This document shows positions 3,016 through 59,710 of a stretch of DNA of 64,000 bases, piece by piece. The DNA is taken from sequence record PZ452581.1. One strand, 5' to 3'. Source of the stretch: a phage. The notes beneath the pieces were generated by a model that saw only the letters and a list, made by a program, of their open reading frames with translations, ran no database searches and was not told the origin of the DNA. Position 1 is the stretch's first letter; each line of letters begins with the position of its first letter. The position numbers were made by a program, and so were the translations under genes.

Positions 3016-3134
3016 TATAAATTCTCTTTTAAATGAAAATGCAGGACTTATTGGCATTGCCTGCGAAAGCCCTCAAGGGGTACTTAGGTTTTGAATATTT
3101 ACCGACAGGATAACCATAAACCTCGTCAACATAA

Positions 3135-3522: not shown

Positions 3523-3530
3523 TATTTATA
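3523..3530 (-). promoter_or_regulatory. late promoter-like TATAAATA
   Basis: Exact TATAAATA on minus strand immediately downstream of gene 31 stop. Confidence 0.4.
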
Positions 3531-3866: not shown

Positions 3867-3922
3867 CGTTTTTCCTTTTTGTTAACAGATGAATTAATAA
3901 TAACAAATAATTCTTAAAGCAT

Positions 3923-5384: not shown

Positions 5385-5617
5385 AGTACGCCATACACCC
5401 TTTGTGCTTCAACTAATCCATCAAAATCCAGTTTAAGATGTGTTATTTGATCACCATCACCTGGATTCACAATTACTAATACTGAACGAGGAGTTTCGGT
5501 AATAACACGAACCGATGTTTCAGGAAATCGTTCAGAAACCTTATTTACCAATTCCTGAGCAAATAGTTTAACTTTTTCTTGGAATTCTTTAACAGTAATT
5601 GGTTTTTCACTTAGCAT
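5381..5617 (-). CDS. hypothetical protein (cd.x block)
   Basis: 78-aa ORF, overlaps neighbours. Confidence 0.55.
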   Translation of the reverse strand: MLSEKPITVKEFQEKVKLFAQELVNKVSERFPETSVRVITETPRSVLVIVNPGDGDQITHLKLDFDGLVEAQRVYGVL

Positions 5618-6138
5618 GTTGATCCCAGCTCCTTACTTTCAACGTTTTTAACTAATTTGACAGAAACTAATTCGGCATCTTGGGTAATCATTACCGGGCC
5701 TTCTTCATACTCTTCAAGATATTCTAGAGCTTTCTTTTTAGCTTCTTCCTTCGTATCAGTTTGAGCATAGATATAGAACATACAACCAGTAATACCTACT
5801 ACTTTCCACTTAATTTCTTTATCAGTTTTAATTTCAAATTTACTGATAGAGTCATCTTTTTGAACTTCTTCGAAAAAATAATATTCTGACATATAAGTAA
5901 TTGAAAATAACGGGCTATCTTTATAAGATTCGCCCATTACATCAACAGCTTTATACCAGCAGTCATCAATTTCACGTTTAATGCTAATAACATTTTTCGC
6001 AGAATCTATTTTTACTTTAAATGAATTTTCCCCAATAAACTTGGCAATTCGTTTATTAGCCCCGCAAGTTTCATTAAAAATATCTTTATATCCAGCTTTA
6101 AAGCGATAAACCTTATCTTCTTCAAACCATTTGCTCAT
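5611..6138 (-). CDS. hypothetical protein (cd.x block)
   Basis: 175-aa ORF; early-promoter motif at 6163-6198 upstream. Confidence 0.6.
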   Translation of the reverse strand: MSKWFEEDKVYRFKAGYKDIFNETCGANKRIAKFIGENSFKVKIDSAKNVISIKREIDDCWYKAVDVMGESYKDSPLFSITYMSEYYFFEEVQKDDSISKFEIKTDKEIKWKVVGITGCMFYIYAQTDTKEEAKKKALEYLEEYEEGPVMITQDAELVSVKLVKNVESKELGSTC

Positions 6139-6869: not shown

Positions 6870-8094
<1,225 letters not shown>

Positions 8095-12320: not shown

Positions 12321-12371
12321 AAATTTTCCGCTTAGTTAATAGATAGTGACTCGTCCATGAGTCAAATTATA

Positions 12372-14636
12372 TCATAATTTACAGGATGAACAATCTTCAG
12401 CTTTTGGAGTTTCTATTTCATAATCATCAGTACCAGAACCATCGCGAGTATTATGATAATAGAAATTTTTTCCGCCAAAATACCAAAAATACAAAAGGTC
12501 ATCAATCATTATTGACATTGGAACCTTTCCTTTTGGAAAAATCTGCGGGTCATAATATGTATTCGCTGAAGCTGATTGACATACCCATTTAAGCATAATA
12601 GCTACCTGCGTAAGATAAGGTTTATTACCTTTCTTAGCTAATTTCCACGTATAATCATAGAGGTCTATGTTATGCTCAATATTGGGCACGACTTGATTAA
12701 AGGAACCCTCTTTTGATTCTTTAACAGAGACTGGTCCACGTGGAGGCTCGATACCGTTTGTACTGTTAGAAACTTGGGAAGATGACTCACATGGCATAAG
12801 TGCTGATAATGTGCTATTACGGATGCCAAAGAGCTTAAGGTCTTCCCGCAGCGACGACCAGTCACAAACGTATTTTGGAGCTGCGATTTGGTCAATCTTT
12901 TTATTGTACCAGTCGATAGGTAATTCGCCTCGAGACCAACGAGTGTCTGAATAATATTCGCAAGGTCCTTTTTCTTTGGCGAGTTTAATGGATGCTTTAA
13001 TGAGTCCATACTGTAATCTCTCAAATAGTTCATGTGTTAAATCGTTAGCATCTTCATAAGAAGCAAAATTACTTGCCAGCCAAGCTGCATAGTTAGTAAC
13101 ACCTACACCGAGATTTCGACGCTTTTTAGCTTTTTCTGCTTCAGGAACTGGATATCCTTGGTAATCCAAAAGATTATCAAGAGCACGAACTTGAACTTCT
13201 GCCAATTCATTAATTTTATCTTGGTCTTGCCAATCGAAGTTATCTAACACAAATGCAGATAACGTACACAGTCCAATTTCGGCATCAGGACTATTCACGT
13301 CATTTGTTGGAATAGCAATTTCACAACACAAGTTGCTCTGACGAATAGGTGCCTTTTCACGAATAAATGGAGTATAGTTATTCGTATTATCAATGAACTG
13401 CACATAAATCCTTGCTGTTCCTGAGCGTTCAGTCATGAGTAATTCAAACAGTTCACGGGCTTTAATACGCTTTTTACGAATATTAGGGTCTTTTTCTGCG
13501 GCTTCATATAATTCACGGAAACGGTCTTGGTCTTTAAAATAAGAATAATAAAGCTCACCACCCATTTCATGCGGACTGAACAAAGTAATGTAATCATTCC
13601 TTCCGAATCGTTCCATCATTAGGTCATTCAGTTGAACGCCATAATCCATATGACGGATACGGTTTTCTTCTACACCTTTGTTATTTTTCAAAACGAGAAG
13701 ATTTTCAACTTCCAAATGCCAAATAGGATAATAAGCAGTAGCAGCGCCGCCACGAATTCCACCCTGTGAGCATGATTTAACAGCAGTCTGAAAATGTTTC
13801 CAAAAAGGAATAACACCAGTATGACGTACTTCACCTGTGCCAATCTTAGAACCTTCAGCACGAATCATACCAACGTTAATACCAATTCCAGCGCGTTTGG
13901 AGATATATTCAACAATTGAAGCGGAAGCCTTATTGATAGACTTCAGCGAATCACCTGCCTCAATAACAACACATGAACTAAACTGTCGAGTCGGAGTACG
14001 ACAGCCAGCCATAATAGGAGTTGGCAATGAAATCTGTCGAGTAGATACTGCTTCATAAAAACGAATAACATGTTTTAATCTATCAACAGGTTCATCTTGA
14101 TGTAATGCCATTCCAATAGTCATAAATGCAAACTGTGGAGTTTCATAAATTTGACCAGTGGTTTTATCTTTAACTAAATATTTTTCTTTTAATTGCATCG
14201 CCCCGGAATAAGTAAATTCCATATCCCGCTCATGCTTAATTTTTGATTCTAAAAATGTAATTTCTTCGGCAGAATATTTTGACAACAATTCAGGGTCGTA
14301 TTTACCTTCATTTACACAGTAAGAAATATGGTCAATAAATGAGCATGGTTCATACTGACCATAAACATGCTTACGAAGAGCGAACATTAAACAGCGTGCA
14401 GCTACGTATTGATAATCAGGCTCTTCAACCGAAATAGAATTCGCAGCAGCCTTAATTACAATGGTTTGAATGTCATCAGTGGTCATTCCATCACGGAGAT
14501 ATGATTTAATATTTTCATATAATTCATAAGGATCTACAGATGTTCCTTCAGCTGCCCAAGATAAAACTTTAATAATTTTTTGCGGGTCAAAGCTCTGAGA
14601 AACACCACTACTTTTGATAATATTAATTAATTGCAT
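12372..14636 (-). CDS. nrdA: ribonucleotide reductase large subunit (class Ia R1)
   Basis: 754 aa; N-terminal ATP-cone, active-site SNLCCEI. Confidence 0.9.
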   Translation of the reverse strand: MQLINIIKSSGVSQSFDPQKIIKVLSWAAEGTSVDPYELYENIKSYLRDGMTTDDIQTIVIKAAANSISVEEPDYQYVAARCLMFALRKHVYGQYEPCSFIDHISYCVNEGKYDPELLSKYSAEEITFLESKIKHERDMEFTYSGAMQLKEKYLVKDKTTGQIYETPQFAFMTIGMALHQDEPVDRLKHVIRFYEAVSTRQISLPTPIMAGCRTPTRQFSSCVVIEAGDSLKSINKASASIVEYISKRAGIGINVGMIRAEGSKIGTGEVRHTGVIPFWKHFQTAVKSCSQGGIRGGAATAYYPIWHLEVENLLVLKNNKGVEENRIRHMDYGVQLNDLMMERFGRNDYITLFSPHEMGGELYYSYFKDQDRFRELYEAAEKDPNIRKKRIKARELFELLMTERSGTARIYVQFIDNTNNYTPFIREKAPIRQSNLCCEIAIPTNDVNSPDAEIGLCTLSAFVLDNFDWQDQDKINELAEVQVRALDNLLDYQGYPVPEAEKAKKRRNLGVGVTNYAAWLASNFASYEDANDLTHELFERLQYGLIKASIKLAKEKGPCEYYSDTRWSRGELPIDWYNKKIDQIAAPKYVCDWSSLREDLKLFGIRNSTLSALMPCESSSQVSNSTNGIEPPRGPVSVKESKEGSFNQVVPNIEHNIDLYDYTWKLAKKGNKPYLTQVAIMLKWVCQSASANTYYDPQIFPKGKVPMSIMIDDLLYFWYFGGKNFYYHNTRDGSGTDDYEIETPKAEDCSSCKL

Positions 14637-15193: not shown

Positions 15194-16054
15194 TTACACC
15201 GCCATCTTTCCTTTCAAGACACCATGGGACTGATAATCTTTGAGAACGAAATCTCGTGCTGTCATATATTCAGTTAACCAATACATTTGAGTTTCAGTAT
15301 CGCATTGACTGAATCCATTAGGCCAATTAATACTGAGTTTGCATAGATCCATAGGAGTTCTATTTAATATCTCTTTGCATTGCTCAATATGGTTAGAATA
15401 AATGTGTGTATTACCACCCGAGAATACCAAATCGCCCGGAACTAGTTCACACATGTCAGCAACAATATGCAAAAGAGCAGCATAACTCGCGATGTTAAAT
15501 GGAAGACCGAGGAAAACATCTACCGAACGTTGATACCATTGGAGGTCAAGGTATCCGTTACGCACATTAAACTGATAGAACATATGACAAGGAGGTAATG
15601 CCATCTGCTTGAGTTCAGCTGGATTCCATGCCGACACAATTTGACGCCTATCGTTGGGAAATGTTTTAATACGATTAACAACTTCTACAATTTGATCTAC
15701 ACCACCAAAATCACGCCACTGTTTTCCGTAAATTGGACCAAGTTCACCGCTATGATAACCTAAGTCTTTGGCCTGGTTTTCGTAGTTTTCATCCCAAATT
15801 GTTTTTCCTGCAATTAAAGATCCATGAGTACGTTGACGTAAATCATTTACGTTAGTACTTCCTGATAAGAACCACAATAACTCAGAAATACATGCATTCC
15901 AGGCGAGCTTCTTAGTCGTTACTGCAGGAAAACCTTTAGTTAAATCCCAGCGTAATTTAGTACCGAACAAAGCAATTGTTCCTGTGCCTGTTCGGTCATC
16001 AGTTTCATAGCCATTTTCAAAAATGTCTTTAATTAAATCTTGGTATTGTTTCAT
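15194..16054 (-). CDS. td: thymidylate synthase
   Basis: 286 aa uninterrupted; ThyA active-site LPPCH; no group I intron. Confidence 0.95.
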   Translation of the reverse strand: MKQYQDLIKDIFENGYETDDRTGTGTIALFGTKLRWDLTKGFPAVTTKKLAWNACISELLWFLSGSTNVNDLRQRTHGSLIAGKTIWDENYENQAKDLGYHSGELGPIYGKQWRDFGGVDQIVEVVNRIKTFPNDRRQIVSAWNPAELKQMALPPCHMFYQFNVRNGYLDLQWYQRSVDVFLGLPFNIASYAALLHIVADMCELVPGDLVFSGGNTHIYSNHIEQCKEILNRTPMDLCKLSINWPNGFSQCDTETQMYWLTEYMTARDFVLKDYQSHGVLKGKMAV

Positions 16055-16098: not shown

Positions 16099-16446
16099 TC
16101 AATACGGTTTAGCATCAAATTTTCTTTCAATTTCAGGCGTAAAATACAATTCTTTACCACGCTTGGAAAAGCGACCAATAATATGATAATTATTCTCATC
16201 AAACGTGATATTGCCGATATCCATAGCTTTCAACCAAATATCGATATTTCTGTCAAGCTTTATATCAAAATTCCAATACGGAGAACTATTACCGAAAATA
16301 CTACAAGCGGATTCAGTGAAACAACTGCTATAAATCTTGTCTTTAGGAACTACTAATTGATAGACGCCTTTAATAAACTGAGGACCCTGCCATTTTGGTT
16401 GTTTCGCGTCTTTTTCTAATAGAATAGGGTAATAATTAAAATTCAT
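16099..16446 (-). CDS. hypothetical protein inserted between frd and td
   Basis: 115-aa ORF occupying the frd-td junction. Confidence 0.5.
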   Translation of the reverse strand: MNFNYYPILLEKDAKQPKWQGPQFIKGVYQLVVPKDKIYSSCFTESACSIFGNSSPYWNFDIKLDRNIDIWLKAMDIGNITFDENNYHIIGRFSKRGKELYFTPEIERKFDAKPY

Positions 16447-16465: not shown

Positions 16466-17292
<827 letters not shown>

Positions 17293-17303
17293 ATTATCTC
17301 CTA

Positions 17304-17636
17304 TTAAAAAGGATCAGGAACATATCCGCTAGCTTTAATCATTTTAATTAACGTTAACATTCCTTTGTTAACTGCTCGTGAGATTTCATCAAAAACTTCA
17401 TCACTAAAAAGTTCTAACACGCCCTTCTGAACTTTTAATTTACAGCCAATAATTTCTTCATCGCCTATAGTAAATTCATTACCACCAATTCCACCGAAAA
17501 ACTTAATTACGCCAGTTAACTGTCTTCCACGAGAATATGGATCATGTGATAAAGTAATATGAGTCACCCCAGGTACAGTTTTAAATTGACAGCGAATGTT
17601 TACTTGAGCAATTCCAGTTACATGAATGTCAGACAT
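17304..17636 (-). CDS. hypothetical protein (frd.2-like)
   Basis: 110-aa ORF. Confidence 0.55.
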   Translation of the reverse strand: MSDIHVTGIAQVNIRCQFKTVPGVTHITLSHDPYSRGRQLTGVIKFFGGIGGNEFTIGDEEIIGCKLKVQKGVLELFSDEVFDEISRAVNKGMLTLIKMIKASGYVPDPF

Positions 17637-17949: not shown

Positions 17950-18252
17950 TTATTTTTGAATTTTATCGAGCCACTTACCAAGCTTAATCATTTCTTTAGT
18001 AGCCTTTTCCATACTTCTGAACTTAACCAATAGAGGATAGGTATCGACACCCATAACTAAACTGGTTACAAGACTGTGTTCACCCACAAGCCATAATGAA
18101 TACGTTTGAATATCGAGTCCGTAATTTCTGTCTTTATGGACCCGTACACCCATCACTTCAAATTTCTCACTAGCTTTTTCTACCGCATCCAGGAAATCAT
18201 CTTTAGTCATATTAGGCCTTAAAAGTTTTTCGCAAAAGTTCAATGATTTCAT
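17950..18252 (-). CDS. hypothetical protein
   Basis: 100-aa ORF (start may be the internal Met). Confidence 0.5.
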   Translation of the reverse strand: MKSLNFCEKLLRPNMTKDDFLDAVEKASEKFEVMGVRVHKDRNYGLDIQTYSLWLVGEHSLVTSLVMGVDTYPLLVKFRSMEKATKEMIKLGKWLDKIQK

Positions 18253-19928: not shown

Positions 19929-20000
19929 TTTTATTTCCTTTTTAATTTAATTAACAGTTGGTGCTATGACGATGTATGACCTCATAGCTGGTCAGTGAGA
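19929..20000 (-). promoter_or_regulatory. gene 32 translational operator leader (pseudoknot region plus unstructured UUAAAUUAAA tract)
   Basis: Minus strand reads ...GCTATGAGGTCATACATCGTCATAGCACCAACTGTTAATTAAATTAAAAAGGAAATAAAAATG, matching the T4 gene 32 autoregulatory leader as I recall it. Confidence 0.6.
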
Positions 20001-20012
20001 TAATTATAATCT

Positions 20013-20020
20013 ATTTATAA
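20013..20020 (-). promoter_or_regulatory. late promoter TATAAATA upstream of gene 32
   Basis: Exact TATAAATA on minus strand. Confidence 0.5.
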
Positions 20021-20027
20021 TAAGCAA

Positions 20028-28023: not shown

Positions 28024-31000
28024 ATGGCTACTTTAAAACAAATACAATTTAAAAGAAGCAAAACCGCAGGTGCACGTCCTGCTGCTTCAGTATTAGCCGA
28101 AGGTGAATTGGCTATAAATTTAAAAGATAGAACAATTTTTACTAAAGACGATTCAGGAAATATCATTGACTTAAGCATTTCCGCTGGCGGTAATATCAGT
28201 GGTAATATCACTCAAACTGGTGATTATACACAGACTGGAAAATTTAATTTAATTGGCCCGCAGATTATAGCAAGTGGTGGATATATTGAGTTTAATTATC
28301 GTACTACTGGAAGTGGGGCTTGGTCCGGTCAACACACTGCAAAGGCTCCAATTTTTGTAGATTTAAGCTCAGCTACTTCCACATCTGAATATAATCCTAT
28401 AATTAAACAGCGCTTTAAAGATGGAACTTTTTCATTAGGTACTTTAGTTTCTGAAGGTTCGTTGAAGATTCATTATATTGATGAAACTGGTCAATCTAAA
28501 TATTGGACATTTGCGCGCTCAGGTAATTTTCAAGTTGATTCTGGTAATTTATTAGTATCTGGTGGGTATTTAGTCGCTCAGAGTAATATTGAAACAAGAA
28601 CAGGTTCTTTGATTGGTCCATCTGTTGTAACTAAAAATATTTCATTTGATACGAAAGCGTTTGGACAATACGATTCGCAGTCATTAGTTCAATATGTTTA
28701 TCCTGGAACTGGTGAAACAAACGGAATTAATTACCTTCGTAAATTCCGTGCAAAATCTGGTGGTACGATTTATCATGAATTAGCTTCTGCACAAACCGGA
28801 AAAAGTGATGAACTGTCTTGGTGGACCGGTAATACAGCCGTTAATAAACAAATGGGCCTTCGCAATGATGGGTCTTTAGTGTTGCGACGCTCACTCGCAA
28901 TTGGTACAATTACAACAGATGAAAACATTAATAATTACGGCTCCACTGGAGCAATGGGTGAATGCTATATAGTCATTGGAGATGCCGCAACTGGTGTATC
29001 ATATAAAAGATCTGGTGTATATGATTTAGTTGCTAATGGTCTTTCTATCGCGTCTATTACTCCTGACAGTTTCCGTAGTACTCGTAAAGCATTATTTGGA
29101 CGTTCAGAAGACCAAGGCGGAACATGGAATATGCCTGGAACGAACGCCGCGTTTTTATCGGTTCAAACACAGGCTGATGAAAACACTGCTGGAGACGGTC
29201 AAACCCATATTGGATATAATTCTGGCGGAAAAATGAACCACTATTTCCGTGGTAAAGGAAAAACTAATATTAATACTCAAGAAGGCATGGAAGTTAACCC
29301 GGGTATTTTGAAATTGGTAACTGGCTCTAATAATGTAATGTTTTATGCTGATGGCGGTATTACATCTGTTAAGCAGCTTTCAATATATAACGGCATATAT
29401 TTAGCAGCTAATAATTCTACTGCTGGGCTAACATTCGCTCCAACTACTACAATTGATGGCACTAAGCAAATTTTGTGGGAAGGCGGTACTCGTGCTGGTC
29501 AGAATAAAAGCTATGTAACTGTTAAAGCATGGGGTAATTCATTTAACGCATCTGGCGATCGTAATCGTGAAACGGTTTTTGAAGTAGCTGATGGACAAGG
29601 ATATTATTTTTATTCACAGCGTGTGGCTCCAAGTGGCTCTGAAACTACTGGGCCTGTTGTAACCCAGTTCAATGGACAAGTTAATGCTAGAGGAAGTATT
29701 ATTACTGACGGAAGTTTTAAAGTTAATGGATTAAGCACTTTAGTCGGTAATGTTACCATGTCTAATGGTTTGTTTGTCCAAGGTGGTTCTTCTATTACTG
29801 GACAGGTAAAAATTGGTGGAACGGCTGATGCATTAAGAATTTGGAATGCTGAATACGGTGCTATTTTCCGTCGCTCAGAAAGTAATCTTTATATTATACC
29901 GACTCCTAAAGATGCTGGAGAATCGGGCGGTATAAGTAATCTTAGACCATTGATAATAGAACTGAACACTGGCACAGTTAAAATGTCGCATGATGTTCAT
30001 TTAGGAGATTCTGGATCTGGTACAGGACTTTTACAAGTAAGTAATAGTCTTAAAACTATTAAAATGATATGTCCAGTAACTATTAATGAACGCAATGCAG
30101 CGCTTACCCTGGATTCTCCTTCATCTTCTTCTGCTAATTATTTACAGGGTTCTAAAGCTGGAACTAGATCATGGTACGTTGGTCTTGGCGGCGCTGGAAA
30201 TGATTTATCTCTTTATAGCCAATCTTATGGACATGGTCTTGTTATAAGCGATAATTTCGTGTCAATCAGTAAACCTCTTAAAGTTGGAAATGCCCAACTA
30301 GGAACTGATGGTAATATTACTAGCGGTTCAGGAAACTTTGCCAACTTGAACACCACACTAAACCGTAAAGTTAATTCTGGATTTATTACTTATGGAGCAA
30401 CCGCTGGATGGTATAAGTTTGCAACAGTAACAATGCCACAATCCACTTCGACGGTCTTCTTTAAAATAGTTGGAGGTTCTGGATTTAATAGCGGATTATT
30501 CACACAATGTAATATTGCTGAAATTGTTTTACGTACTAGTAATGAAAGACCTGCTGACTTAAATGCTGCATTATACACAAGAACAATTGGAGCTGCATTT
30601 AAAGATATTGCAGTTAATAACGTCTCTGGAGATACATATGACATTTATGTTTCTGCTGGAACATATTGTAATCAATTAGCTTGTGAGTGGTCATGTACCG
30701 AAAATGCTACTGTTAGTGTTATTGGTATTAACTCATCTACACAATCACCTGTAGATGCTCTTCCAGATACAGCAGTTAATGGTCAAGTTGCTAATGTTCT
30801 TAATAACTTGGTTGATCGCGGTAAAGTTAAGCGTTATGAAGCCGATTCTGAACTAGCTATTAATAGCCCAACCGGTATTCGTATCAGAAGCAATGCCGAT
30901 AAAACTGGTTCTGTGGCTACAATGTTACGAAATGATGGCGGTAGTTTTTATATTCTGTTTACAGATAAAAATGCCACCGATGGCGCAGCAACTGTTAATG

Positions 31001-31806
31001 GTGATTGGAATAGTAAACGTCCTTTCGCAATTAACTTAACAACCGGCGAAGTGATGATGAATAACGGCATAGCTGTTCGCAGCGCTGCTTTATTCTATAA
31101 TAGCATAAACGTCAAAGATAATGGTTCTATTAACTTTGATAAATCAGGCGCTAACCCGAGAAATATGAGAATATTTCATGCTGGCGATGCTTCTCGCGGT
31201 AACCGTATTGAAATTGCCGATGAAACTAACTATATTGCTTACTTTGAAAAAACACCAGGTGGAGCTAATCGCTTTGTAGTAAATAATGCTACTGTAGCTG
31301 GTGTTAATCAAATGAATTCATTTGGTATTAACATCAATAACGCACTTGGTGGAAATAGTATAGCGTTTGGCGATAATGACACTGGTATTAAGCAAAATGG
31401 CGATGGATTATTAGACATATATGCGAATGGTGTACAGACTTTCCGTTTCCAAAACGGTGATTTGTACTCATACAAAAATATAAATGCTCCAAACGTTTAT
31501 ATTCGTTCTGATATTCGTTTAAAATCTAACTTCAAACCTATCGAAAATGCACTTGATAAAGTTGAAAAACTTAACGGTGTCATTTACGATAAAGCTGAAT
31601 ATATCGGTGGAGAGGCAATTGAAACTGAAGCGGGTATTGTGGCTCAAACGTTACAAGACGTTTTACCAGAAGCTGTCCGTGAAACAGAAGACAGTAAGGG
31701 TAATAAAATACTCACTGTTTCTTCTCAAGCCCAGATTGCTCTTCTGGTTGAAGCTGTGAAAACACTTTCTGCTCGTGTAAAAGAACTTGAATCTAAACTT
31801 ATGTAA
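28024..31806 (+). CDS. 37: long tail fibre distal subunit with C-terminal intramolecular-chaperone-like domain
   Basis: 1260 aa; C-terminus ...IRSDIRLKSNFKPIENALDKVEKLNGVIYD... resembles self-cleaving chaperone domains of fibre/endosialidase proteins. Confidence 0.9.
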   Translation: MATLKQIQFKRSKTAGARPAASVLAEGELAINLKDRTIFTKDDSGNIIDLSISAGGNISGNITQTGDYTQTGKFNLIGPQIIASGGYIEFNYRTTGSGAWSGQHTAKAPIFVDLSSATSTSEYNPIIKQRFKDGTFSLGTLVSEGSLKIHYIDETGQSKYWTFARSGNFQVDSGNLLVSGGYLVAQSNIETRTGSLIGPSVVTKNISFDTKAFGQYDSQSLVQYVYPGTGETNGINYLRKFRAKSGGTIYHELASAQTGKSDELSWWTGNTAVNKQMGLRNDGSLVLRRSLAIGTITTDENINNYGSTGAMGECYIVIGDAATGVSYKRSGVYDLVANGLSIASITPDSFRSTRKALFGRSEDQGGTWNMPGTNAAFLSVQTQADENTAGDGQTHIGYNSGGKMNHYFRGKGKTNINTQEGMEVNPGILKLVTGSNNVMFYADGGITSVKQLSIYNGIYLAANNSTAGLTFAPTTTIDGTKQILWEGGTRAGQNKSYVTVKAWGNSFNASGDRNRETVFEVADGQGYYFYSQRVAPSGSETTGPVVTQFNGQVNARGSIITDGSFKVNGLSTLVGNVTMSNGLFVQGGSSITGQVKIGGTADALRIWNAEYGAIFRRSESNLYIIPTPKDAGESGGISNLRPLIIELNTGTVKMSHDVHLGDSGSGTGLLQVSNSLKTIKMICPVTINERNAALTLDSPSSSSANYLQGSKAGTRSWYVGLGGAGNDLSLYSQSYGHGLVISDNFVSISKPLKVGNAQLGTDGNITSGSGNFANLNTTLNRKVNSGFITYGATAGWYKFATVTMPQSTSTVFFKIVGGSGFNSGLFTQCNIAEIVLRTSNERPADLNAALYTRTIGAAFKDIAVNNVSGDTYDIYVSAGTYCNQLACEWSCTENATVSVIGINSSTQSPVDALPDTAVNGQVANVLNNLVDRGKVKRYEADSELAINSPTGIRIRSNADKTGSVATMLRNDGGSFYILFTDKNATDGAATVNGDWNSKRPFAINLTTGEVMMNNGIAVRSAALFYNSINVKDNGSINFDKSGANPRNMRIFHAGDASRGNRIEIADETNYIAYFEKTPGGANRFVVNNATVAGVNQMNSFGININNALGGNSIAFGDNDTGIKQNGDGLLDIYANGVQTFRFQNGDLYSYKNINAPNVYIRSDIRLKSNFKPIENALDKVEKLNGVIYDKAEYIGGEAIETEAGIVAQTLQDVLPEAVRETEDSKGNKILTVSSQAQIALLVEAVKTLSARVKELESKLM

Positions 31807-31836: not shown

Positions 31837-32622
31837 ATGGCAATTGTAGGTGTTCCTGGCTGGATTGGTGAATCTGCCGTGAATGAAACTGGACAACGCT
31901 GGATGGATGCTGCAATGAAAGCAGTTCGTGTTTCAGTTCCCGGTTGGATGAGCTCAATGGCCGGACAATCTAAAGAAGTATATTATAGCATTGGTGCTAG
32001 TAATTCTTATAATAAAGATACATTAATAAACTGGATAAAAGCACAAGGGTCCACGCCTGTTGTTATTACTATTACAGGAAATATTGTTTCTCAATCTACT
32101 GGTGTTCCATGCTTAGATTTTCCTAGCTCATTAACTAATGCATACGTGACACTTAATATCAATTCAGGCGTGCATGTTTGGGGCCGTGGCGGGAATGGCG
32201 GAAATAACTCTGCCGGTGGAGCAGGAGGAACTGCAATAAATAATGGAATTGGAACTAGATTGCGTATTAACAACAATGGTGTTATCGCAGGAGGCGGTGG
32301 CGGCGGTGGAGGTGGATATTATTCTCCTTTTTCACAAATGAAATTGACTTTTGGCGGTGGCGGCGGTCGTCCATTTGGTGCTGCTGGCGGGTCTGCTAAT
32401 ATGGAACAGGGCGCTACTGCTGGTACTATTTCTGCACCTGGTAAAGGGTCTGTCAATGGTATCTATAATGGCGGGAATGGCGGTGATGCTGGTGCCGCAG
32501 GTGGTAAATGTAATATTCGTGGGCAAGGATCAGAATATAACGGCGGTGCGGCTGGTAAAGCTGTTACTGGTAATGCTCCAACTTGGACTAAAGTTGGTAC
32601 AATATACGGTTCAAGAGTATAA
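31837..32622 (+). CDS. 38: tail fibre adhesin, glycine-rich T2/T6-type gp38
   Basis: 261 aa; conserved N-terminus MAIVGVPGWIG and poly-Gly blocks (GGGGGGGGG) separating variable segments. Confidence 0.85.
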   Translation: MAIVGVPGWIGESAVNETGQRWMDAAMKAVRVSVPGWMSSMAGQSKEVYYSIGASNSYNKDTLINWIKAQGSTPVVITITGNIVSQSTGVPCLDFPSSLTNAYVTLNINSGVHVWGRGGNGGNNSAGGAGGTAINNGIGTRLRINNNGVIAGGGGGGGGGYYSPFSQMKLTFGGGGGRPFGAAGGSANMEQGATAGTISAPGKGSVNGIYNGGNGGDAGAAGGKCNIRGQGSEYNGGAAGKAVTGNAPTWTKVGTIYGSRV

Positions 32623-36167: not shown

Positions 36168-36317
36168 TTACTGCATGACTGTGATAACTGTCATGATAAC
36201 ACGTTGAATTCCGAACGCAAGAAGACCTCCTGCTACGGCTGGAACAACACCTAAACCCGCCAGTAAAATGCTACCGGATACTAATGCAGCGCTTGTAATA
36301 CCTATGAATGGACTCAT
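36168..36317 (-). CDS. small hydrophobic membrane peptide (49 aa)
   Basis: ATG overlaps gene 52 stop; sequence MSPFIGITSALVSGSILLAGLGVVPAVAGGLL...; below track cutoff. Confidence 0.4.
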   Translation of the reverse strand: MSPFIGITSAALVSGSILLAGLGVVPAVAGGLLAFGIQRVIMTVITVMQ

Positions 36318-37642
36318 TTGATTTCCTCTAAATCTTTAGTGTATTCGGTAACTACATCAGTAGTTTTCCAATATTCGTTTTCTTCTTTCTTAGCTTTAGC
36401 TTCTTCAGCAAGTTTCTTTGCTTCGTCGGAAGTCATATGAAAAATATTCATTCCGACTAGTTTATCAACATAAGAAGAATACATCTCAATTTTAGAAAGT
36501 TCTTCGGTCAGTTCTTTACGAGTTTTACCTTGAACAACAATTTCACCTGAAATTACTTTCTTAATGAAATGTGCCTTGGCAAAGGCTAAACGAAAAGCTG
36601 ACTCAGTTTCTTTGATTTTGTTATCAATTCGTTTTTGGACATAAGTTTTACGAACTTCAACAAAGTCTTTAATTAAATCAACTACGTTATCGTAAACTTG
36701 CAGTTTTCCTTTCTCATTAATGACGGTAATATTCTGAGAACGACGCTCAATCAACCCGAAGTCTTTCATAATTTTTGCATGGCGTTCTTCTTCATTATCG
36801 CTCAAAGAATATTCTTTACGGAATTTAACTTTGAATCCAAAACCATGCTCACCACAAGCATCATCCCATGTAATGAAGCCTTTATCTTCAAGTGGGTCTA
36901 AGATTTTACTCACATAAGTTTCACGATCATACTTATACGGAATCTCAGTGATATGCATTTGAGTTCGTGAAGTAAACTTATATGTTCCACGAATTTCATA
37001 TTGCCCATCAATTTCAACGACTTCACCACGAAATTCTGGGAATTCTACCTTCGGTTTAGTTACTTTCTTTCCTTGAAGAGCTTGCAGTACAGCTTTCTTA
37101 ACAGAAGAAACACTATGAGGAAGAATGTAAGTTGCATAACCAGTTGCAATACCGGAAACGCCATTAAGAAGAACAGTAGGAATAATAGGCAAATAGAAAG
37201 CAGGCGGAATGTGTTCTTTATCTTGATGTACCGGAGCATATTCAGTATCTTTATATACGTTATAGAAATTTTTACTTACACGAGCAAAAATATAACGACT
37301 TGCTGCTGCTTTTTGGACGGTACGAGAACCAAAGTTTCCTTGACCATCTAACAGAGGAAAGTTATTATTCCAAGTGTTAGCCATCAAAGCACCTGCGTCT
37401 TGCGCAGAGTTTTCACCATGATGATATCCAAGGTCCGCTACACCACCTGCAATAGAAGCAAGTTTGTGAAACTTATCTTTATTTCCTCGTGCCAAATCAA
37501 GAGCTCGAGCAATAACAAATCGTTGGACTGGCTTAAATCCGTCAATCATATTTGGGATAGCACGATTTTCAACCGTGTACATAGCATAAGCCAATGCTTC
37601 ATTATCAATGATACTTTTTAAATCGCGATTATTCAGTTGCAT
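36314..37642 (-). CDS. 52: DNA topoisomerase II medium subunit (GyrA-like)
   Basis: 442 aa; recognised as T4 gp52. Confidence 0.9.
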   Translation of the reverse strand: MQLNNRDLKSIIDNEALAYAMYTVENRAIPNMIDGFKPVQRFVIARALDLARGNKDKFHKLASIAGGVADLGYHHGENSAQDAGALMANTWNNNFPLLDGQGNFGSRTVQKAAASRYIFARVSKNFYNVYKDTEYAPVHQDKEHIPPAFYLPIIPTVLLNGVSGIATGYATYILPHSVSSVKKAVLQALQGKKVTKPKVEFPEFRGEVVEIDGQYEIRGTYKFTSRTQMHITEIPYKYDRETYVSKILDPLEDKGFITWDDACGEHGFGFKVKFRKEYSLSDNEEERHAKIMKDFGLIERRSQNITVINEKGKLQVYDNVVDLIKDFVEVRKTYVQKRIDNKIKETESAFRLAFAKAHFIKKVISGEIVVQGKTRKELTEELSKIEMYSSYVDKLVGMNIFHMTSDEAKKLAEEAKAKKEENEYWKTTDVVTEYTKDLEEIK

Positions 37643-39436: not shown

Positions 39437-39700
39437 TCATAACTCAATCTCAGCGATTTTCATTTCATTACTATTAATAGCCGCTTTAAGACTATCTGAA
39501 AGAATTACATCCCAGTGGTCATTCATATGACCATTAATTAAGCGTGTAATTTCTTCGGGAGTTGAAAAATAAGGCGTATCAGACTCCCAATGCGATAATC
39601 CTAAGCGAGTATAAATCATACCTTCATCATCGCTAGAATATTCAACTGACACAAACTCATCAGTTATTTTATGTTTAGCGTAATAAAATTTAAATTTCAT
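39437..39700 (-). CDS. hypothetical protein
   Basis: Internal ATG at 39700 (87 aa) downstream of promoter motif 39730-39764; track ORF extends to 39802. Confidence 0.5.
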   Translation of the reverse strand: MKFKFYYAKHKITDEFVSVEYSSDDEGMIYTRLGLSHWESDTPYFSTPEEITRLINGHMNDHWDVILSDSLKAAINSNEMKIAEIEL

Positions 39701-39729
39701 TTTCCGCTCCAAATCCGTATCAGTTGATA

Positions 39730-39764
39730 GTTGTATAGTACCACGGTCCTTGTGGTATGTAAAC
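39730..39764 (-). promoter_or_regulatory. early promoter-like element
   Basis: GTTTAC then TGGTACTATACAACTATC on minus strand. Confidence 0.55.
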
Positions 39765-39783
39765 TGTTTTGTGAAATTTTTTT

Positions 39784-40341
39784 TTAAATGGAAAGATACC
39801 ATCCGTTGTAGTTGCTTTTTCTTACAACCTTACGAAGGTCTTCTCTGTCACCGATGAACTTCGGAGTGTACTGGATGACACCTGGATGAATTTCTTTAGT
39901 GTTGAATATAATTATACAGTCAGCGACTTGATGATTTAGAATGGGCCCTAAATTTATTCCAGAACCATATGGATACTCTCCGCTGCATCCCGTTGTTACC
40001 GAAATCCAACGCGAGTCAGTTTGATGTGTCTTAACTTCTACACGAAGCCCACAGTATTTTGGATGTGCTAAAACATCCCATGCATATGTGTACGGATCAT
40101 CGACATCTTCTTGGCCTTTATTGACATATCCGCTTAGCCAATCTGCCACAAAAAACTCTGCGTACACAGCGATACGGCATCTTTCGATAACTTCTGCCTT
40201 ATCCTGATTTGGATTTTGTTTTAAAGAGTATCTTGCTGTATCAGCAATTTTGACCTTCATTTCACTAGTCAAGTCACTGTTCGATAGGGTAAATGTCGGA
40301 ATCTGAAATAGTCTCTGTAAACCCGGATTCGTTTTCTGCAT
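39784..40341 (-). CDS. denB: endonuclease IV-like (assignment by size and synteny)
   Basis: 185 aa between rIIB and ndd block, as T4 denB. Confidence 0.65.
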   Translation of the reverse strand: MQKTNPGLQRLFQIPTFTLSNSDLTSEMKVKIADTARYSLKQNPNQDKAEVIERCRIAVYAEFFVADWLSGYVNKGQEDVDDPYTYAWDVLAHPKYCGLRVEVKTHQTDSRWISVTTGCSGEYPYGSGINLGPILNHQVADCIIIFNTKEIHPGVIQYTPKFIGDREDLRKVVRKSNYNGWYLSI

Positions 40342-41604: not shown

Positions 41605-43782
41605 TTAGGCCGCAAGGGCCTTCATAGTTTTAGCGATTTGGGAAACTTCATCATCGCTTAAAGAATTGCGATAACCGATGAAGTCGGAAACAATACGGAA
41701 TTTCTTGGTAAACTCAGCAACCATTTTATCACTATTTTTTGAAGCATTACGTGATAATTCATCAAAGAGATTAGTTACTGTCCAGATATCATGACCGATG
41801 GTATCTTTTCCACCATTGAAATACACACCGCGTAATGAACTAACCATATTACCAAGTCGTGTATATTCTTCAGAAACTTCATCTGTACTGAAGTACTTCA
41901 TCATAAAATCTAGTTCAGGATACTTGATAATTTTATCAATATATCGTTGAGCTGAACTTGAATAACCTACATACTTATCATAATCTACATCATCAAAAGC
42001 ATCTACATATAAATCACGCAAAGCTTCAAAAATACATTGGCACTGACCGAGTTCTTTTACCTTTTTCTGTAAAAGCGGACGAATAACATAAAATTCATTA
42101 ATGCCAATAAGATTAGCCATACGAATCAAAATATTCATAGATGGATGACAAAGTGATGTAGTACCATCCATAGAGAAAATATCAGAACGATGCATATACG
42201 CTACATAACCAGTAATTTCATCTGCTTCTGACGTAAGTGTAAATAATTCCTCTTTTTCCCAACGCCCATCTTTAATTTCAAACTTAAATGCTGTAGCAGC
42301 TTTAGGACGAGGAGCTTTACTTTTAACTACCTTTGGAATATAGCTTTTAACTAAAGCTTCAATTTCTGACAAATAATGAATGTTAACTTCATCACTTTCA
42401 AACATTGCCATAATATCAGGTAGTAAATCAATCTGCGATTCTACTTCCGGATTAATAAACAGAAGACGCTCATTGTGATGAATATTTAAAGTGTTATTAA
42501 ATTCACTATCATCTAGCGCATGTGCTAATCCACGGACAATATTAACACGATTTTTAATATTATCAATAACGATATTAATTTTTGTTGTATTAATACCAAA
42601 CAGACGATAACTTGACGCAACGGCTGATGTTTCATGACTTTGCTTAATGCGCTTCAGTCGAGGGTCAAGATTTACTTCATATACAACTCCTGCATTACAT
42701 AACTTACTGTCAGGTTCAAACATGCTCTGCATTTTCTTATATGACAGATTTTTAGTCGTGAATTTGACTGAATTACTAATCATATAATCTCGAGCAGAAT
42801 ACCCCATCTTCATCAATTCACGATATGTGTGACGAGGAGATGTAGATTCTTTAAATCGTTTTACATCTTCATTAAATGCTTTCTCACTAAGCTCTTTAAC
42901 TCGTTCAATAATATTTTTACGAGTGCGATCATCTAATGAAAGAGCTTCACGTGATGGAGCAATATCAAGTGAACCCATTGGAAATTTAATGTAATTCACT
43001 TCATTACGAATGCTTAGCCAGTTACGGTCTCTAATAACACCATCGATAGGATAAACAATACCACCATAGATAGCATATAATCCACCACGATCAGGCCAGT
43101 ATCTTTCTGGATTTACACCGTAATAGTCATCAAAATCCGGAAAATAATCAATTTCGCGGTCAAGACCATTAATGATAGCCAAATCTTTGAACGGTCGCAT
43201 GATATAAGAAACTTCATAAGCAAAGTTTCTAAAGTCTTTTTCTTCAACTGGAACTACGATTTCAATACCAGTTTTATCATCTGGACCCATTTCTTTCACG
43301 AATGTAGGTTTAATTTGTGGACCATCGCCATCCATGTAAGCTACATAACCACGAATTTCACCTTTATGATACGAAGTAATACTAAATGTATCAGTATAAC
43401 TAAACGGAGATTTAGAACCTAAACCAAATCCGCCAATGAAATCGTTAGATTCAGCCTTAGATGAACTGAAGTATGAATTATACAAACCAGGAGAATTATC
43501 ATCACCCTGAATATCAAAATCACTCATACCCGGACCAAAATCTCGGCAAACAAATCGTGGATCTAAACGTCCAGGAACTTGAATGATAAATTTTTCAGGA
43601 TTTCCATTGAGAGCATGGGCATCAATCATGTTGGTAATCAATTCACGGACTACTGCGCGAATTTTGTTTGTATACAAATCAGATGACAGAATTTTAAATA
43701 CTTTAGGAGATGCTGTGATGCTAAATGCTTTTGATTTAGAACCATTACCAAGAATTGTTTCTTTTTCAGTGGTGATAATCAT
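41605..43782 (-). CDS. rIIA: rIIA protein (GHKL ATPase-like N-terminus)
   Basis: 725 aa; length and synteny match T4. Confidence 0.9.
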
Positions 43783-43792
43783 AATTTCCTCA

Positions 43793-43996
43793 TTAATTCA
43801 TATTACGCTTAATAACTTCAGCAACTTCTAGTAGTTCATCTTTAGTTGCAGTGTCGGATTGAATTTTATCTCTAATATCTTTAAAGCGGTTTTTAAATTC
43901 TTCGGCTTCTCCCATATCGAAAAAGCGTTGAATGATTCTATATTCTCGATGAACTGCTTTATCAAAAAGTTCTAAATTTACTCTATATGATTTCAT
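43793..43996 (-). CDS. hypothetical protein (rIIA.1-like)
   Basis: 67-aa ORF; promoter GTTTAC ... TGGTATAAT upstream at 44019-44050. Confidence 0.6.
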
Positions 43997-44018
43997 TTCA
44001 ATATCCTCATTTGCCCAA

Positions 44019-44050
44019 TTAATTATACCACATCCTTGTGGTAAAGTAAA
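44019..44050 (-). promoter_or_regulatory. early promoter (GTTTAC and TGGTATAAT)
   Basis: Minus strand GTTTACTTTACCACAAGGATGTGGTATAATTAAT. Confidence 0.6.
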
Positions 44051-45871
44051 CTACTGGCTCATCCATTCTTTACGAAGGTCAGCATTATCTCCCATGAGCA
44101 TTTCAAAAAGCTCTTTCCAGTTCTCAGGAAGTTTAACAACATCATATACTGGATTTTGAATCATCTCACGATATTCAGATTTTTCCAAAGAGCCAAGTCC
44201 TTTAATATAACGGATGCTATGTTTAGGTAGAGCATCTTTGGCACTCTCATATTCAGCGACTGTATAAAACCATTCTTGTTTTTTACCGACCTGAGCGATG
44301 ATTACAGGAGTTTTGACAAAGCGAATTCGTCCTTGCTCAAACAGTTCTGGCCAATTACTAAAAAATCCAAGAAGAGAAGGATAAATGCTTCCTAGACCAT
44401 CATGGTCAGCATCAGTCATAATAGCAATATTATGATAATTCAAGTTTTCAGCCTTTTCACCAAGAACTAATCCAGTGATTGCGCAAATGTCAAACAGTTC
44501 TTTGTTTTTAAGCATATCGGCATATGACATACCCCAGCTATTAAGAACTTTACCACGTAATGGATAACCGCCATGAAGTTCTTTATCACGAACATCAATA
44601 AGATATCCGATAGCAGAATCACCCTCAGTCAAGAAAAGAGTAGTGTCAGCGTCTTTACCGCAAAGATTCGCTTTAATGTGTTTATGAACCTTAGCTTTAG
44701 AAGCCTTTTTAGCTGCTTTAGTTTCTGCTGCTTTTTCTGCCGCCAATTTACGAGCCAAGGCAGCTTCAATAATTGGCATTAAAATTGCTTCATTGTTTAA
44801 AATAGCGCGTGAAATCTTTTTAGCATCAAGCTGAATATGACTACGAATTTCACCAAATGGAGAAGTCAAACGCTCTTTAGTCTGAGAATCAAATCGCATG
44901 TTTTTCATATCACGAACGAACATAACGATAGTCAAACATTCTTTAACGCGTGCTTTAGTTACATCAATTTTGAACTTACGTTTGATTTGTGGAATAAGGT
45001 CTTCACAAATATCATCCATAACACAGTCAATGTGATGGCCACCATTCTTAGTGTGAATGTTATTCACATAAGTTAATTGGCGAAATCCATCCGGTGAACG
45101 ACCAACCGCAATAGAACAATTTTCTTGTTCTTGAACAATAGCATGTTCATCATACTGTCGTGCATATTTCTTAAAATTGCCCTGAACCTTTTTACCATTA
45201 AAGGTAAATTGAATATCAGGATAAACAACAGCAAGTGTCTGGAGACGATCTAGTGTAATGTCAAGATAAACTTGGGACAGCTCATTAGTTTCAAATGACA
45301 TAAAATCTGGAATGAAAGTAACACGAGTTCCTTTCCATTTTCCAGGAATAGTTTCCCAGGATTTATTTTCCATGCCATTTGAACAACGAACTACAATATT
45401 ATTTTGACCATCGCCAGTTTCACCGACAAACATCACAGAAAAAATGTTAGTTAAACTAGAACCAACACCGTTCATACCGCCAGTGACGCGTTCTTTATCA
45501 TCACCGAAGTTACCACCTGCTTTTGGAATAGTCCAAGCAGCAACAGGACCAGGAATTTCTTCACCAGTAGGTGTTTTAACCATCGCTTGTGGAATACCGC
45601 GACCGTTATCTTCAACTGTTACTTGATTGTTTTTAATAGTAACATTAATTTTATTTGCGAATTTAAACTTAGTACGAATACCTTCATCTACTGAGTTATC
45701 GATAATTTCATCAATAAGCTTAACAAGACCAGGTACATACTGAACACTTTCCCATTTACCAAACAGAAAGCGCTCATGCATTTCATTAGCAGAAGAACCA
45801 ATGTACATGCCGCTACGCTTTTTGATATGTTCAATATCGCTCAGAATTTTAATTTCATTCTTAATCATCAC
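44051..45871 (-). CDS. 39: DNA topoisomerase II large subunit, unsplit (GyrB-like ATPase)
   Basis: 606-aa continuous ORF; GHKL motifs (VEDNGRGIP, GGxxGxG); no separate gene 60. Confidence 0.9.
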   Translation of the reverse strand: MMIKNEIKILSDIEHIKKRSGMYIGSSANEMHERFLFGKWESVQYVPGLVKLIDEIIDNSVDEGIRTKFKFANKINVTIKNNQVTVEDNGRGIPQAMVKTPTGEEIPGPVAAWTIPKAGGNFGDDKERVTGGMNGVGSSLTNIFSVMFVGETGDGQNNIVVRCSNGMENKSWETIPGKWKGTRVTFIPDFMSFETNELSQVYLDITLDRLQTLAVVYPDIQFTFNGKKVQGNFKKYARQYDEHAIVQEQENCSIAVGRSPDGFRQLTYVNNIHTKNGGHHIDCVMDDICEDLIPQIKRKFKIDVTKARVKECLTIVMFVRDMKNMRFDSQTKERLTSPFGEIRSHIQLDAKKISRAILNNEAILMPIIEAALARKLAAEKAAETKAAKKASKAKVHKHIKANLCGKDADTTLFLTEGDSAIGYLIDVRDKELHGGYPLRGKVLNSWGMSYADMLKNKELFDICAITGLVLGEKAENLNYHNIAIMTDADHDGLGSIYPSLLGFFSNWPELFEQGRIRFVKTPVIIAQVGKKQEWFYTVAEYESAKDALPKHSIRYIKGLGSLEKSEYREMIQNPVYDVVKLPENWKELFEMLMGDNADLRKEWMSQ

Positions 45872-45937
45872 TTATCCTCGTTTGGTTTCGGGAATATTAT
45901 ACTCCGGTAATCATAAAGCTAAAGGCCCGAAGGCCTT

Positions 45938-46210
45938 TTATTTAAAACGGATAGTCGAATCCTTGAAGAATAGACCAGAACATACTGTTCCTTCTACTTT
46001 CTGCCCGGTAGGTCCAATAGCACGAAATCCAGTATGTTGGAAATCATTTTCAGAGCAACCGAACCAATTATATCCAGTGATTTCAATATTAGTAAAACCG
46101 CTTGAAGACAAAATTTTGGTTGCATTATCAGCATCAGTACATCCTACTAAAGATACTGCTAATACTAATGCTGCGATAGAACGATTAACATATTTCATAA
46201 TTTCACTCAA
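45938..46210 (-). CDS. putative lipoprotein
   Basis: 90 aa; signal peptide with lipobox SLVGCT. Confidence 0.55.
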   Translation of the reverse strand: MSEIMKYVNRSIAALVLAVSLVGCTDADNATKILSSSGFTNIEITGYNWFGCSENDFQHTGFRAIGPTGQKVEGTVCSGLFFKDSTIRFK

Positions 46211-46574
46211 ATTTAATGGCTTGAAGAAGACTAATAATTCTCAAGCGACTTCTTTCATCTTTAACTGTAAAAGAAAGAGGGTCACCAGATTTCATAGTGA
46301 TGGTGCATCCAAAATCAAAATCTTCTGTAACTTCTTCGAAGAAGTCAAATTCTTCATCATAAATTAGAACATTACTCTGAAAGCTGTGAAGAATTTTTCC
46401 ATCATTTCCAGATGCTGTACTAATCATTGTAACATTATGACCTTTCATATCTTCAACGATAAATTCGCTTGTAGATATTACTGCATTAATAGAACCGTTC
46501 CTATGAATAGCAGAAAATAGATATTTCTTTTCTTCACCTTCGCGAACACGATATTTCTTACCGATTTTAAACAT
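46203..46574 (-). CDS. hypothetical protein
   Basis: 123-aa ORF. Confidence 0.55.
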   Translation of the reverse strand: MFKIGKKYRVREGEEKKYLFSAIHRNGSINAVISTSEFIVEDMKGHNVTMISTASGNDGKILHSFQSNVLIYDEEFDFFEEVTEDFDFGCTITMKSGDPLSFTVKDERSRLRIISLLQAIKFE

Positions 46575-56960: not shown

Positions 56961-57170
56961 TTAAATTACATGATTATTTATAATAAATTCTCGCGGAACG
57001 TTAAAATATCCGATTTTAGTTAATATAACAACATCACCATTAATAATTACCGGAGAATAATCTTCTGAAGCATTAAATTTCCAATGGGCTCTAATATTAT
57101 ATCCATCAGAACCAAATGCTCGACTAGCCGGTCTCCCGGCTTTTTGCCATGCATAAAAATCAAATTTCAT
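56961..57170 (-). CDS. hypothetical protein (soc.1-like)
   Basis: 69 aa. Confidence 0.5.
   Translation of the reverse strand: MKFDFYAWQKAGRPASRAFGSDGYNIRAHWKFNASEDYSPVIINGDVVILTKIGYFNVPREFIINNHVI
56975..56982 (-). promoter_or_regulatory. late promoter TATAAATA for soc
   Basis: Exact TATAAATA on minus strand about 30 nt upstream of soc ATG. Confidence 0.6.
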
Positions 57171-57370
57171 TTTGAATGCTCTATAATTAATTTTAAGGCT
57201 TCTTCACGCACCAACTTGTCTAATGGTATATGCCCAGTTTTAATTGTGTAAGCTTTGTGGAGCTGATTAGATAAGAGCTCGTATGTGAGCTCTTTGTCAT
57301 AATCTTTAAATAGCTGGTCAATACGTTTCTTGCGGGCTTTCTTAAGCTGGCGTTTATTTAAACGAGCCAT
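57167..57370 (-). CDS. hypothetical basic protein (soc.2-like)
   Basis: 67 aa. Confidence 0.5.
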   Translation of the reverse strand: MARLNKRQLKKARKKRIDQLFKDYDKELTYELLSNQLHKAYTIKTGHIPLDKLVREEALKLIIEHSK

Positions 57371-57888
57371 TAATAGCCTCTGTCTTGACGAGCGAAGTTT
57401 TCAGCATTTTTCAGATAATAAAGTTTAAATATTTCTTCAGCTGACATTCCAAGAGCAATAAATTTATTCATGAAAAAGTGAAATTGGTCAATCAGTTCAA
57501 ATTTAATTTCAAGCTGATCTTCAGGAGATAAGTCTTGAATTTTCTTGGATTGCATTTCAGAATAACGTTTCTTCCAAGGTTTCCATACAGCAGAAGCTTC
57601 TTTTTCACCATTACTCATACCACCAAGAGAAGTATATAGCTCGCGAGTTTCGTCTGCGATATAATCGTCTTGGTTTCGCAGCCAAGCAAGAACTTCTCCT
57701 GCAGTTTCAAGTGAATCAGGATGACGATTTGTTTCTGGTTTATCATTAGCCAAACGAATCTGTAAATGCCGCTGCATGTCAAGCATAACCTGCAATGGGT
57801 CAATACTGTGCATAATATACTCAGCATATGCACGATTTGCTTTATCAACACCTTCGATCAAATGAGCACATTCATTAAAGTGAGCCAT
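57370..57888 (-). CDS. 56: dCTPase/dUTPase (MazG-like dCTP pyrophosphatase)
   Basis: Internal ATG at 57888 with AAAGGAAA Shine-Dalgarno gives 172 aa starting MAHFNECAHLIEG; track ORF extends to 57981. Confidence 0.9.
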   Translation of the reverse strand: MAHFNECAHLIEGVDKANRAYAEYIMHSIDPLQVMLDMQRHLQIRLANDKPETNRHPDSLETAGEVLAWLRNQDDYIADETRELYTSLGGMSNGEKEASAVWKPWKKRYSEMQSKKIQDLSPEDQLEIKFELIDQFHFFMNKFIALGMSAEEIFKLYYLKNAENFARQDRGY

Positions 57889-57959
57889 TATTTTTCCTTT
57901 CAATTCATGGGTTAGTAGATTAATTATACAATAAATATATAAAGCAATAAGGAGGACAT

Positions 57960-59352: not shown

Positions 59353-59398
59353 ATTAACCTCTATTCATAAAAGCATTAAAAATTTGGTCATCAATAGA
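59350..59398 (-). repeat. 49-bp junction-cassette direct repeat, copy 1
   Basis: CATATTAACCTCTATTCATAAAAGCATTAAAAATTTGGTCATCAATAGA; second copy at 59708-59756 with 1 mismatch. Confidence 0.8.
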
Positions 59399-59710
59399 TG
59401 GAATAGCAACCTTTTCGGCATCATTTAGCAAATCATTAATTTCATCAGATAGCATAACACATGTGCCTTTATTTCCTGTAATTGTTACTGCACAATTACG
59501 AACGTTTTCTTTATCAAAATTTAGGTTAATATTTTCGTAGTGAAAATCCTTTAATGCCGAATATATCTTTAAAATGAAATTGTCTTTTACTACAATAAAC
59601 CCAACTTCACTATTAAAACGTGGTTCATGGAAACTATAATAAACCTTTTCATCTATAAAATCGTATGAAATTTTTTCCATTTTTAAATATGAAAATTCAG
59701 AACTATACAT
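59354..59710 (-). CDS. hypothetical protein (61.x family, shared C-terminal tail)
   Basis: 118 aa ending SIDDQIFNAFMNRG. Confidence 0.55.
   Translation of the reverse strand: MYSSEFSYLKMEKISYDFIDEKVYYSFHEPRFNSEVGFIVVKDNFILKIYSALKDFHYENINLNFDKENVRNCAVTITGNKGTCVMLSDEINDLLNDAEKVAIPSIDDQIFNAFMNRG

Follow-up and report, generated by a model that had tools for sequence, protein, structure and literature searches.

Knowledge of the two-subunit form of the T-even DNA topoisomerase reportedly goes back to the classical work of Huang and colleagues in 1985, who compared T4 with T6. The type II topoisomerases of T2 and T6 are built from two subunits, gp39 and gp52, while T4 has the only three-subunit type IIA enzyme (PMC11461880). 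The insert that distinguishes T4 has little effect on topoisomerase activity, and relaxation assays have been published for the T6 enzyme (PMC11461880). The two-subunit form is by now covered by reviews (PMC2988022), a dedicated preprint (10.1101/2022.08.31.505936) and solved structures (PMC11461880). As described in bioRxiv 10.1101/2022.08.31.505936, the MobA element has a sharp 5' boundary at residue 473 (A473), and in the T4 clade its 3' boundary lies 9 nt beyond D490/G491; a 64-nt parental segment is deleted, and the 'homR' copy borne by the element shares only 67-81% identity with the parental sequence. Insertions of this element have been repeated, recent and independent within phages that are otherwise 96-99% identical (bioRxiv 10.1101/2022.08.31.505936). 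According to those results of Bonocora et al. (2011) that are relayed in 10.1101/2022.08.31.505936, MobA nicks T2 DNA near the middle of the segment, about 20 nt upstream of the bypass position, and T4 is protected from MobA by the bypass insert rather than by polymorphisms.

The window studied here is the whole 64,000-nucleotide stretch of phage DNA that was analysed. Its program-made ORF list holds a frame of 606 codons on the minus strand (44051..45871), which opens with a GTG (45869..45871) directly followed by an ATG at 45868. Counted from this ATG, the frame runs uninterrupted through 605 codons and a stop (44051..45868, minus strand) and constitutes gene 39, encoding the large, GyrB-like subunit (ATPase and TOPRIM) of a phage type IIA DNA topoisomerase. 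Judging from the ordered Pfam domains and the gapless end-to-end alignment to T2 and T6 gp39 described below, this is not a chance frame. Its annotated start differs between homologues, since the T2 gp39 record uses the ATG while that of JLBYU24 uses the GTG. A GAGGA with a Shine-Dalgarno-like role suggested by its spacing (45875..45879, minus strand, within the 5' sequence ...ACGAGGATAAGTGATGATT) precedes the ATG by 6 nt and the GTG by only 3 nt, and gp39 of T2, T4 and T6 alike begins with MIKNE. Because of this spacing and the N-termini of the homologues, ATG 45868 is almost certainly the start of gene 39 and the product is most likely 605 aa long. The in-frame GTG abutting it on the 5' side, from which the ORF length of '606 aa' derives, is probably not an initiation codon.

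Along the ORF, Pfam reported HATPase_c (1.9e-9), DNA_gyraseB (1.5e-13) and TOPRIM_C (4.2e-7), in this order. The GHKL ATPase domain (45422..45730, minus strand, as are all following features of the gene) carries the N-box EIIDNSVDE (aa 54-62) and the G1 and G2 motifs DNGRGIP (aa 87-93) and GGMNGVGSS (aa 130-138). Within the transducer domain (44717..45121), the motif position gives a QTK loop, DSQTKERL, at aa 327-334 (44867-44890). The TOPRIM motif EGDSA (aa 415-419, 44612..44626) includes the metal-binding Glu E415, and the codons and motif position place DADHDG, with D486, D488, D490 and G491, at aa 486-491 (44396..44413). Both motifs are encoded by the one ORF, which means that a contiguous TOPRIM with its E...DxD residues is present on a single chain; no hit to Pfam's Toprim core model was returned for this ORF at E ≤ 0.001. 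The metal pocket of T6 Topo II is made up of E415, D486 and D488 (PMC11461880). The TOPRIM-associated C-terminal domain (44057..44314) corresponds to the part that is borne by gp60 in T4. Unlike here, T4 has its DADHDG motif encoded in the copy that the element carries, where gene 60 begins; the take-off glycine of T4 is the counterpart of G491 in the window.

For the comparison with T4, gp39 and gp60 queries were translated from the T4 reference DNA (NC_000866), gp60 being joined over the annotated 50-nt gap. Residues 1-473 of T4 gp39 matched aa 2-474 of the ORF (465/473 identical, 98%) and residues 27-160 of gp60 matched aa 473-606 (128/134, 96%), while the 43 C-terminal residues of T4 gp39 and the ~30 N-terminal ones of gp60 had no counterpart in the ORF. 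The gp39 of T2 (LC348380, BBC14618.1; 605 aa) aligned without gaps and was identical at 603 of 605 positions. The best PDB match was the cryo-EM structure of T6 gp39 (8YLU chain C), again gapless and with Q526H as the sole difference over 605 residues (604/605). The second was the artificial T4 gp39-gp60 fusion 8YO3, which aligned in two stretches flanking the T4-specific insert. The preliminary description had read the gene as a single 606-aa ORF covering both T4 parts and had named alignment to T4 gp39 plus gp60 and to T2 gp39 as the check; these alignments bear out that reading, including the homology of the C-terminal part to gp60, with 605 aa as the likely product of the 606 listed codons.

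The gp39 sequences show a difference beside the conserved QTK loop. In the T4 reference (gp39 at 3778-5328 of NC_000866) aa 326-328 read LIR, in the context MRLIRQTKE, versus MRFDSQTKE in the window (44867-44893), in T2, in T6 and in the T4 isolate MT984581. In the DNA, a -1/+1 pair of indels separated by 8 nt accounts for this. LIR is also found in the T4 chain of PDB 8YO3. We considered LIR as a genuine T4 trait and rejected this, since the independent isolate MT984581 has FDS; LIR probably stems from an error in the old T4 reference. The T4 reference also splits mobA into '60.1' and a 37-aa 'mobA', whereas MT984581 has a single 261-aa MobA ORF.

At the DNA level, blastn against T4 returned two colinear blocks, window 46200-44451 with T4 5661-3911 and window 44386-43700 with T4 2793-2107. 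Between these blocks there are 64 nt in the window, an empty MobA homing site (44387..44450, minus strand), compared to 1117 nt in T4, where the interval comprises the gp39 C-terminal extension, mobA, the gp60 N-terminal extension with its homologous region, the 50-nt coding gap and 9 more nt. The codons of the window read ...GGT GAA AAG GCT / GAA AAC TTG AAT TAT CAT AAT ATT GCT ATT ATG ACT GAT GCT GAC CAT GAT GGT CTA GGA AGC / ATT TAT CCT.... T4 departs from this sequence after GAA AAA GCG and enters the gp39 tail; its gene 60 then provides NYANVAIMTDADHDG anew, after which come GGA-TAG, the hairpin, the remainder of the 50-nt gap and TTA GGT TCT. The position equivalent to the T4 coding gap is 44395..44396 (minus strand), where GAT GGT is followed directly by CTA GGA in the window, versus GAT GGA, TAG...50 nt...GGA and TTA GGT in T4. 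This anatomy of the window and T4 sites agrees with the MobA element as described in bioRxiv 10.1101/2022.08.31.505936.

We compared identities at the site for 54 nt, made up of the 45-nt homologous stretch and the 9 nt after it. The window was identical to T2 throughout (54/54) but matched the element-borne copy of T4 at only 37/54 positions (68.5%), in contrast to 1682/1755 (95.8%) in the flanks (Fisher p = 1.6e-10). With its full identity to T2, the site is of the parental type and is not the diverged homR copy. Neither gene 60 nor mobA nor a 50-nt coding gap (take-off GGA plus UAG in the hairpin, landing GGA) is present at the site, and the T4 alignment ends at gp39 residue 473 and resumes at gp60 residue 27 with no remnant of the C- or N-terminal extension (CTE, NTE) or of the gap between aa 473 and 477 of the ORF. 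The T4 take-off/hairpin sequence had no match in the whole 64-kb window with up to 3 mismatches allowed. In tblastn searches of the window, the HNH endonuclease MobA at full length (261 aa, MT984581) gave no match at E ≤ 10, and the mobA and 60.1 fragments of the T4 reference and the gp39 CTE gave none at E up to 1e-3. The claim that gene 60 and the bypass element are absent therefore holds, as the searches for the hairpin, MobA, 60.1 and the CTE all came back empty.

A T2-identical site that matches the T4 copy far less well than its flanks do fits a site that was never invaded. We are close to certain that gene 39 at 44051-45868 has the uninvaded, ancestral Tequatrovirus form, specifying one 605-aa polypeptide without the MobA/bypass cassette, and we found no evidence to the contrary. 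In this form no recoding would be needed, because the cassette with its 50-nt bypass never inserted; the 605-aa chain with its GHKL ATPase, transducer and contiguous TOPRIM would be translated conventionally.

The same DNA could in principle have arisen if an ancestor had carried the MobA/bypass cassette and had it removed without a scar, by recombination or gene conversion with an uninvaded co-infecting phage. T-even phages recombine freely, a rate of element loss that balances its spread has been proposed (bioRxiv 10.1101/2022.08.31.505936), and conversion by a naive donor would give exactly the sequence observed. We nevertheless consider this history very improbable. The site bears no scar, being T2-like at 54/54 positions and free of element-type polymorphisms, extension peptides and MobA remnants, whereas all documented routes of decay retain extension tails (bioRxiv 10.1101/2022.08.31.505936). 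Because documented decay or refusion always leaves such tails and none are found in the window, the never-invaded allele is the simplest reading, the more so as uninvaded is the majority state. If the allele were cured after all, the genome would be one data point for the proposed cycle of element gain and loss.

From the intact, T2-like 64-nt target segment we predict that, in mixed infections, MobA could cleave the DNA of this phage and home into it. Over this segment the window does not differ from T2, and on the secondary account of MobA nicking in T2 the phage should be a naive, cleavable MobA target. We regard this as much likelier than a cured allele.

To place the allele among related phages we used megablast with positions 43700-46300, which returned 756 phage records, ~490 of them at 95-99% identity. 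The matching records were nearly all from Tequatrovirus phages infecting E. coli, Shigella or Yersinia. By its alignments the window belongs to Tequatrovirus as well, and it is identical to none of the records compared, the best reaching ~96% over 25 kb. A 241-nt probe spanning the window junction was contiguous in 470 of the 509 matching phage records, and in the remainder (for example T4, JEP6 and Manna) one side of the junction was matched only. The T4 insertion itself (T4 2780-3930) was present in only 43 phage records. Outside the site, window, T2 and T4 were roughly equidistant in pairwise comparisons (95.2-95.7% in the 5' part and 98.5-99.1% in the 3' part), and carriers of the insertion were as close to the window in their flanks as non-carriers (96.5-96.7%). 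The presence of the cassette therefore defines no lineage.

These comparisons qualify two further statements of the preliminary description. It had called the arrangement T2-type, which is apt in that the ORF is colinear with T2 gp39. We rejected 'T2-type' as a clade marker, since the flanks place window, T2 and T4 at about the same distance from one another; the unsplit gene is the majority form. It had also stated that the mobile insertion is absent from this lineage. The insertion is indeed absent here, but in view of its repeated independent insertions the wording is better restricted to this genome, which carries an uninvaded allele.

The direction of change follows from comparisons beyond the phages. 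Human TOP2A/B and bacterial ParE align over the junction as a single stretch, and the contiguous TOPRIM is ancestral because these homologues pass through the junction unbroken. This leaves hardly any room for the opposite polarity, in which the split T4 arrangement would be ancestral and the ORF of the window would have arisen later, when genes 39 and 60 fused. 'Gene-fusion or gene-separation' have been given as formal alternatives (PMC11461880), and a secondary fusion has been described in one clade of Campylobacter phages (bioRxiv 10.1101/2022.08.31.505936). Known secondary fusions retain tails, however (bioRxiv 10.1101/2022.08.31.505936), whereas the T4-specific tails of 43 aa and ~30 aa are without counterpart in the window, and the T4 interruption harbours a homing endonuclease gene. 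Just as implausible, and without any supporting point that we could find, is the reading of the long ORF as an artefact of assembly or as a pseudogene that has lost its activity and happens to remain open, given the gapless protein identity of 99.7-99.8% to T2 and T6 gp39, the 96.3% DNA identity to T2 with 68 differences in 1818 nt that cause just 2 amino-acid changes and so indicate strong purifying selection, the intact catalytic motifs, and the same structure in hundreds of independent genomes.

The partner subunit is encoded in the window as well. Gene 52 (36314..37642, minus strand; Pfam DNA_topoisoIV, 1e-76) is a 442-aa ORF for the GyrA-like DNA-cleavage subunit, and its product is 99.5% identical to T4 gp52 over 442 aa. 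Together, gp39 and gp52 of the window would form an A2B2 ATP-dependent type IIA topoisomerase from conventionally translated subunits, an activity and stoichiometry that we infer from the near-identity of gp39 to the assayed T6 protein and from the literature.

The downstream neighbour of gene 39 is rIIA.1 (43793..43996, minus strand; Pfam T4_RIIA1, 2.2e-33), which together with rIIA (41605-43782) fixes the synteny with T4 and T2. Directly upstream of gene 39 is a variable region (46203-46574 and 45938-46210, minus strand) with a 90-aa gp39.1-like ORF, a putative lipoprotein by the JLBYU24 annotation, and a 123-aa ORF that has no Pfam match, is absent from T4 and measures 105 aa in T2. Closer to the gene, a TATAAT (45901-45896) is preceded at a distance of 12 nt by AGCTTTA (region 45896-45920, minus strand), an arrangement that presumably resembles a MotA-box middle promoter, at the level of a consensus match only. 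Just past the gene 39 stop, an early-promoter-like TTTACT-17-TGnTATAAT (44022-44050, minus strand; likewise a consensus match only) faces rIIA.1 and rIIA. A consensus scan for promoters and terminators found fewer sites than shuffled sequences did, and thus provided no evidence on expression signals.

Other mobile features of T4 are also missing from the window, namely the nrdB intron with I-TevIII (600 nt), mobE with nrdB.1 (700 nt), the td intron with I-TevI (1017 nt), segG (623 nt) and segF, the corresponding window positions being 11644-11647, 12320-12376, 15505-15506, 19991-20027 and 56982-57370. At the segF position the window instead has two short ORFs (67 and 69 aa). Relocated copies were searched for by tblastn with MobA, the gp39 tail, 60.1, MobE, SegG, SegF, SegA, I-TevI, I-TevIII and Dam, and none matched within the window. 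By these searches, the phage is a mobile-element-poor Tequatrovirus without any T4 homing element in its 64 kb. As the homing elements are missing, it could be a natural recipient in homing experiments.

Several small ORFs of the window are missing at the respective T4 positions (59354-59710 on the minus strand, 5611-6138, 7774-8094, 16099-16446, 17047-17636, 17950-18252 and 39437-39802). The ORF at 59354-59710 has a Pfam hit to the C-terminal portion of AdfA, the anti-DarT factor A (1.5e-8), the ORF at 17304-17636 is a DUF7247 protein, and the other window-specific small ORFs had no Pfam match. We considered whether another homing endonuclease might be hidden among them, but Pfam reported none, only the DUF7247 and the AdfA-like C-terminus.

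Further differences from T4 were found elsewhere in the window. The dam gene (899 nt), which lies between genes 56 and 61 in T4, is missing at 57928-57949, and no Dam match was present anywhere in the window. Such a 56-61 junction without dam is common: 288 of 514 matching phage records, T6 among them, run through it uninterrupted. Gene 56 (57370-57891) is only ~73% identical to that of T4 in DNA. The distal tail-fibre genes (28024-31806 and 31837-32622, plus strand) are not T4-like: in gp37 (1260 aa) the homology to T4 drops to 75% and then vanishes, and gp38, at 261 aa, has the size of a T2/T6-type adhesin, versus the 183-aa assembly chaperone of T4.

For annotation, the locus is best recorded as gene 39, DNA topoisomerase II large subunit, 605 aa, with an ATG start and without gene 60, mobA or recoding. 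Several records already label the unsplit gene 'gp60plus39', equating it with T4 genes 60 and 39 in fused form. Beyond correct annotation, the unsplit gene is of little consequence.

Of the systems described, T6 gp39 (8YLU, 8YO1, 8YO5, 8YO7, 8YOD and 8YON; Nat Commun 2024, PMC11461880) is likewise a 605-aa chain with the same domain order, the same E415, D486 and D488 and a gp52 partner, while the genome around gene 39 in the window is not that of T6, its nearest records reaching only ~96% identity over 25 kb. T2 shares the neighbours rIIA, rIIA.1 and 39.1 and identical DNA over the MobA target segment, and nearly all of the 68 substitutions in its gene 39 are silent; the small ORFs that precede gene 39 in T2 are sized differently from those of the window. 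T4 (NC_000866) has the same enzyme, flanking genes and gp52 partner, with the gene split into gp39 and gp60 by the mobA/50-nt bypass cassette, for which the literature cites Huang et al. (1988) and Bonocora et al. (2011). RB51, ime09, PP01, JLBYU24 and ~470 other Tequatrovirus records have the identical unsplit arrangement at 95-98% DNA identity and differ from the window by ordinary strain-level substitutions only. The unsplit gene 39 is the ancestral majority default, already known and well characterised, and T4 is the exception.
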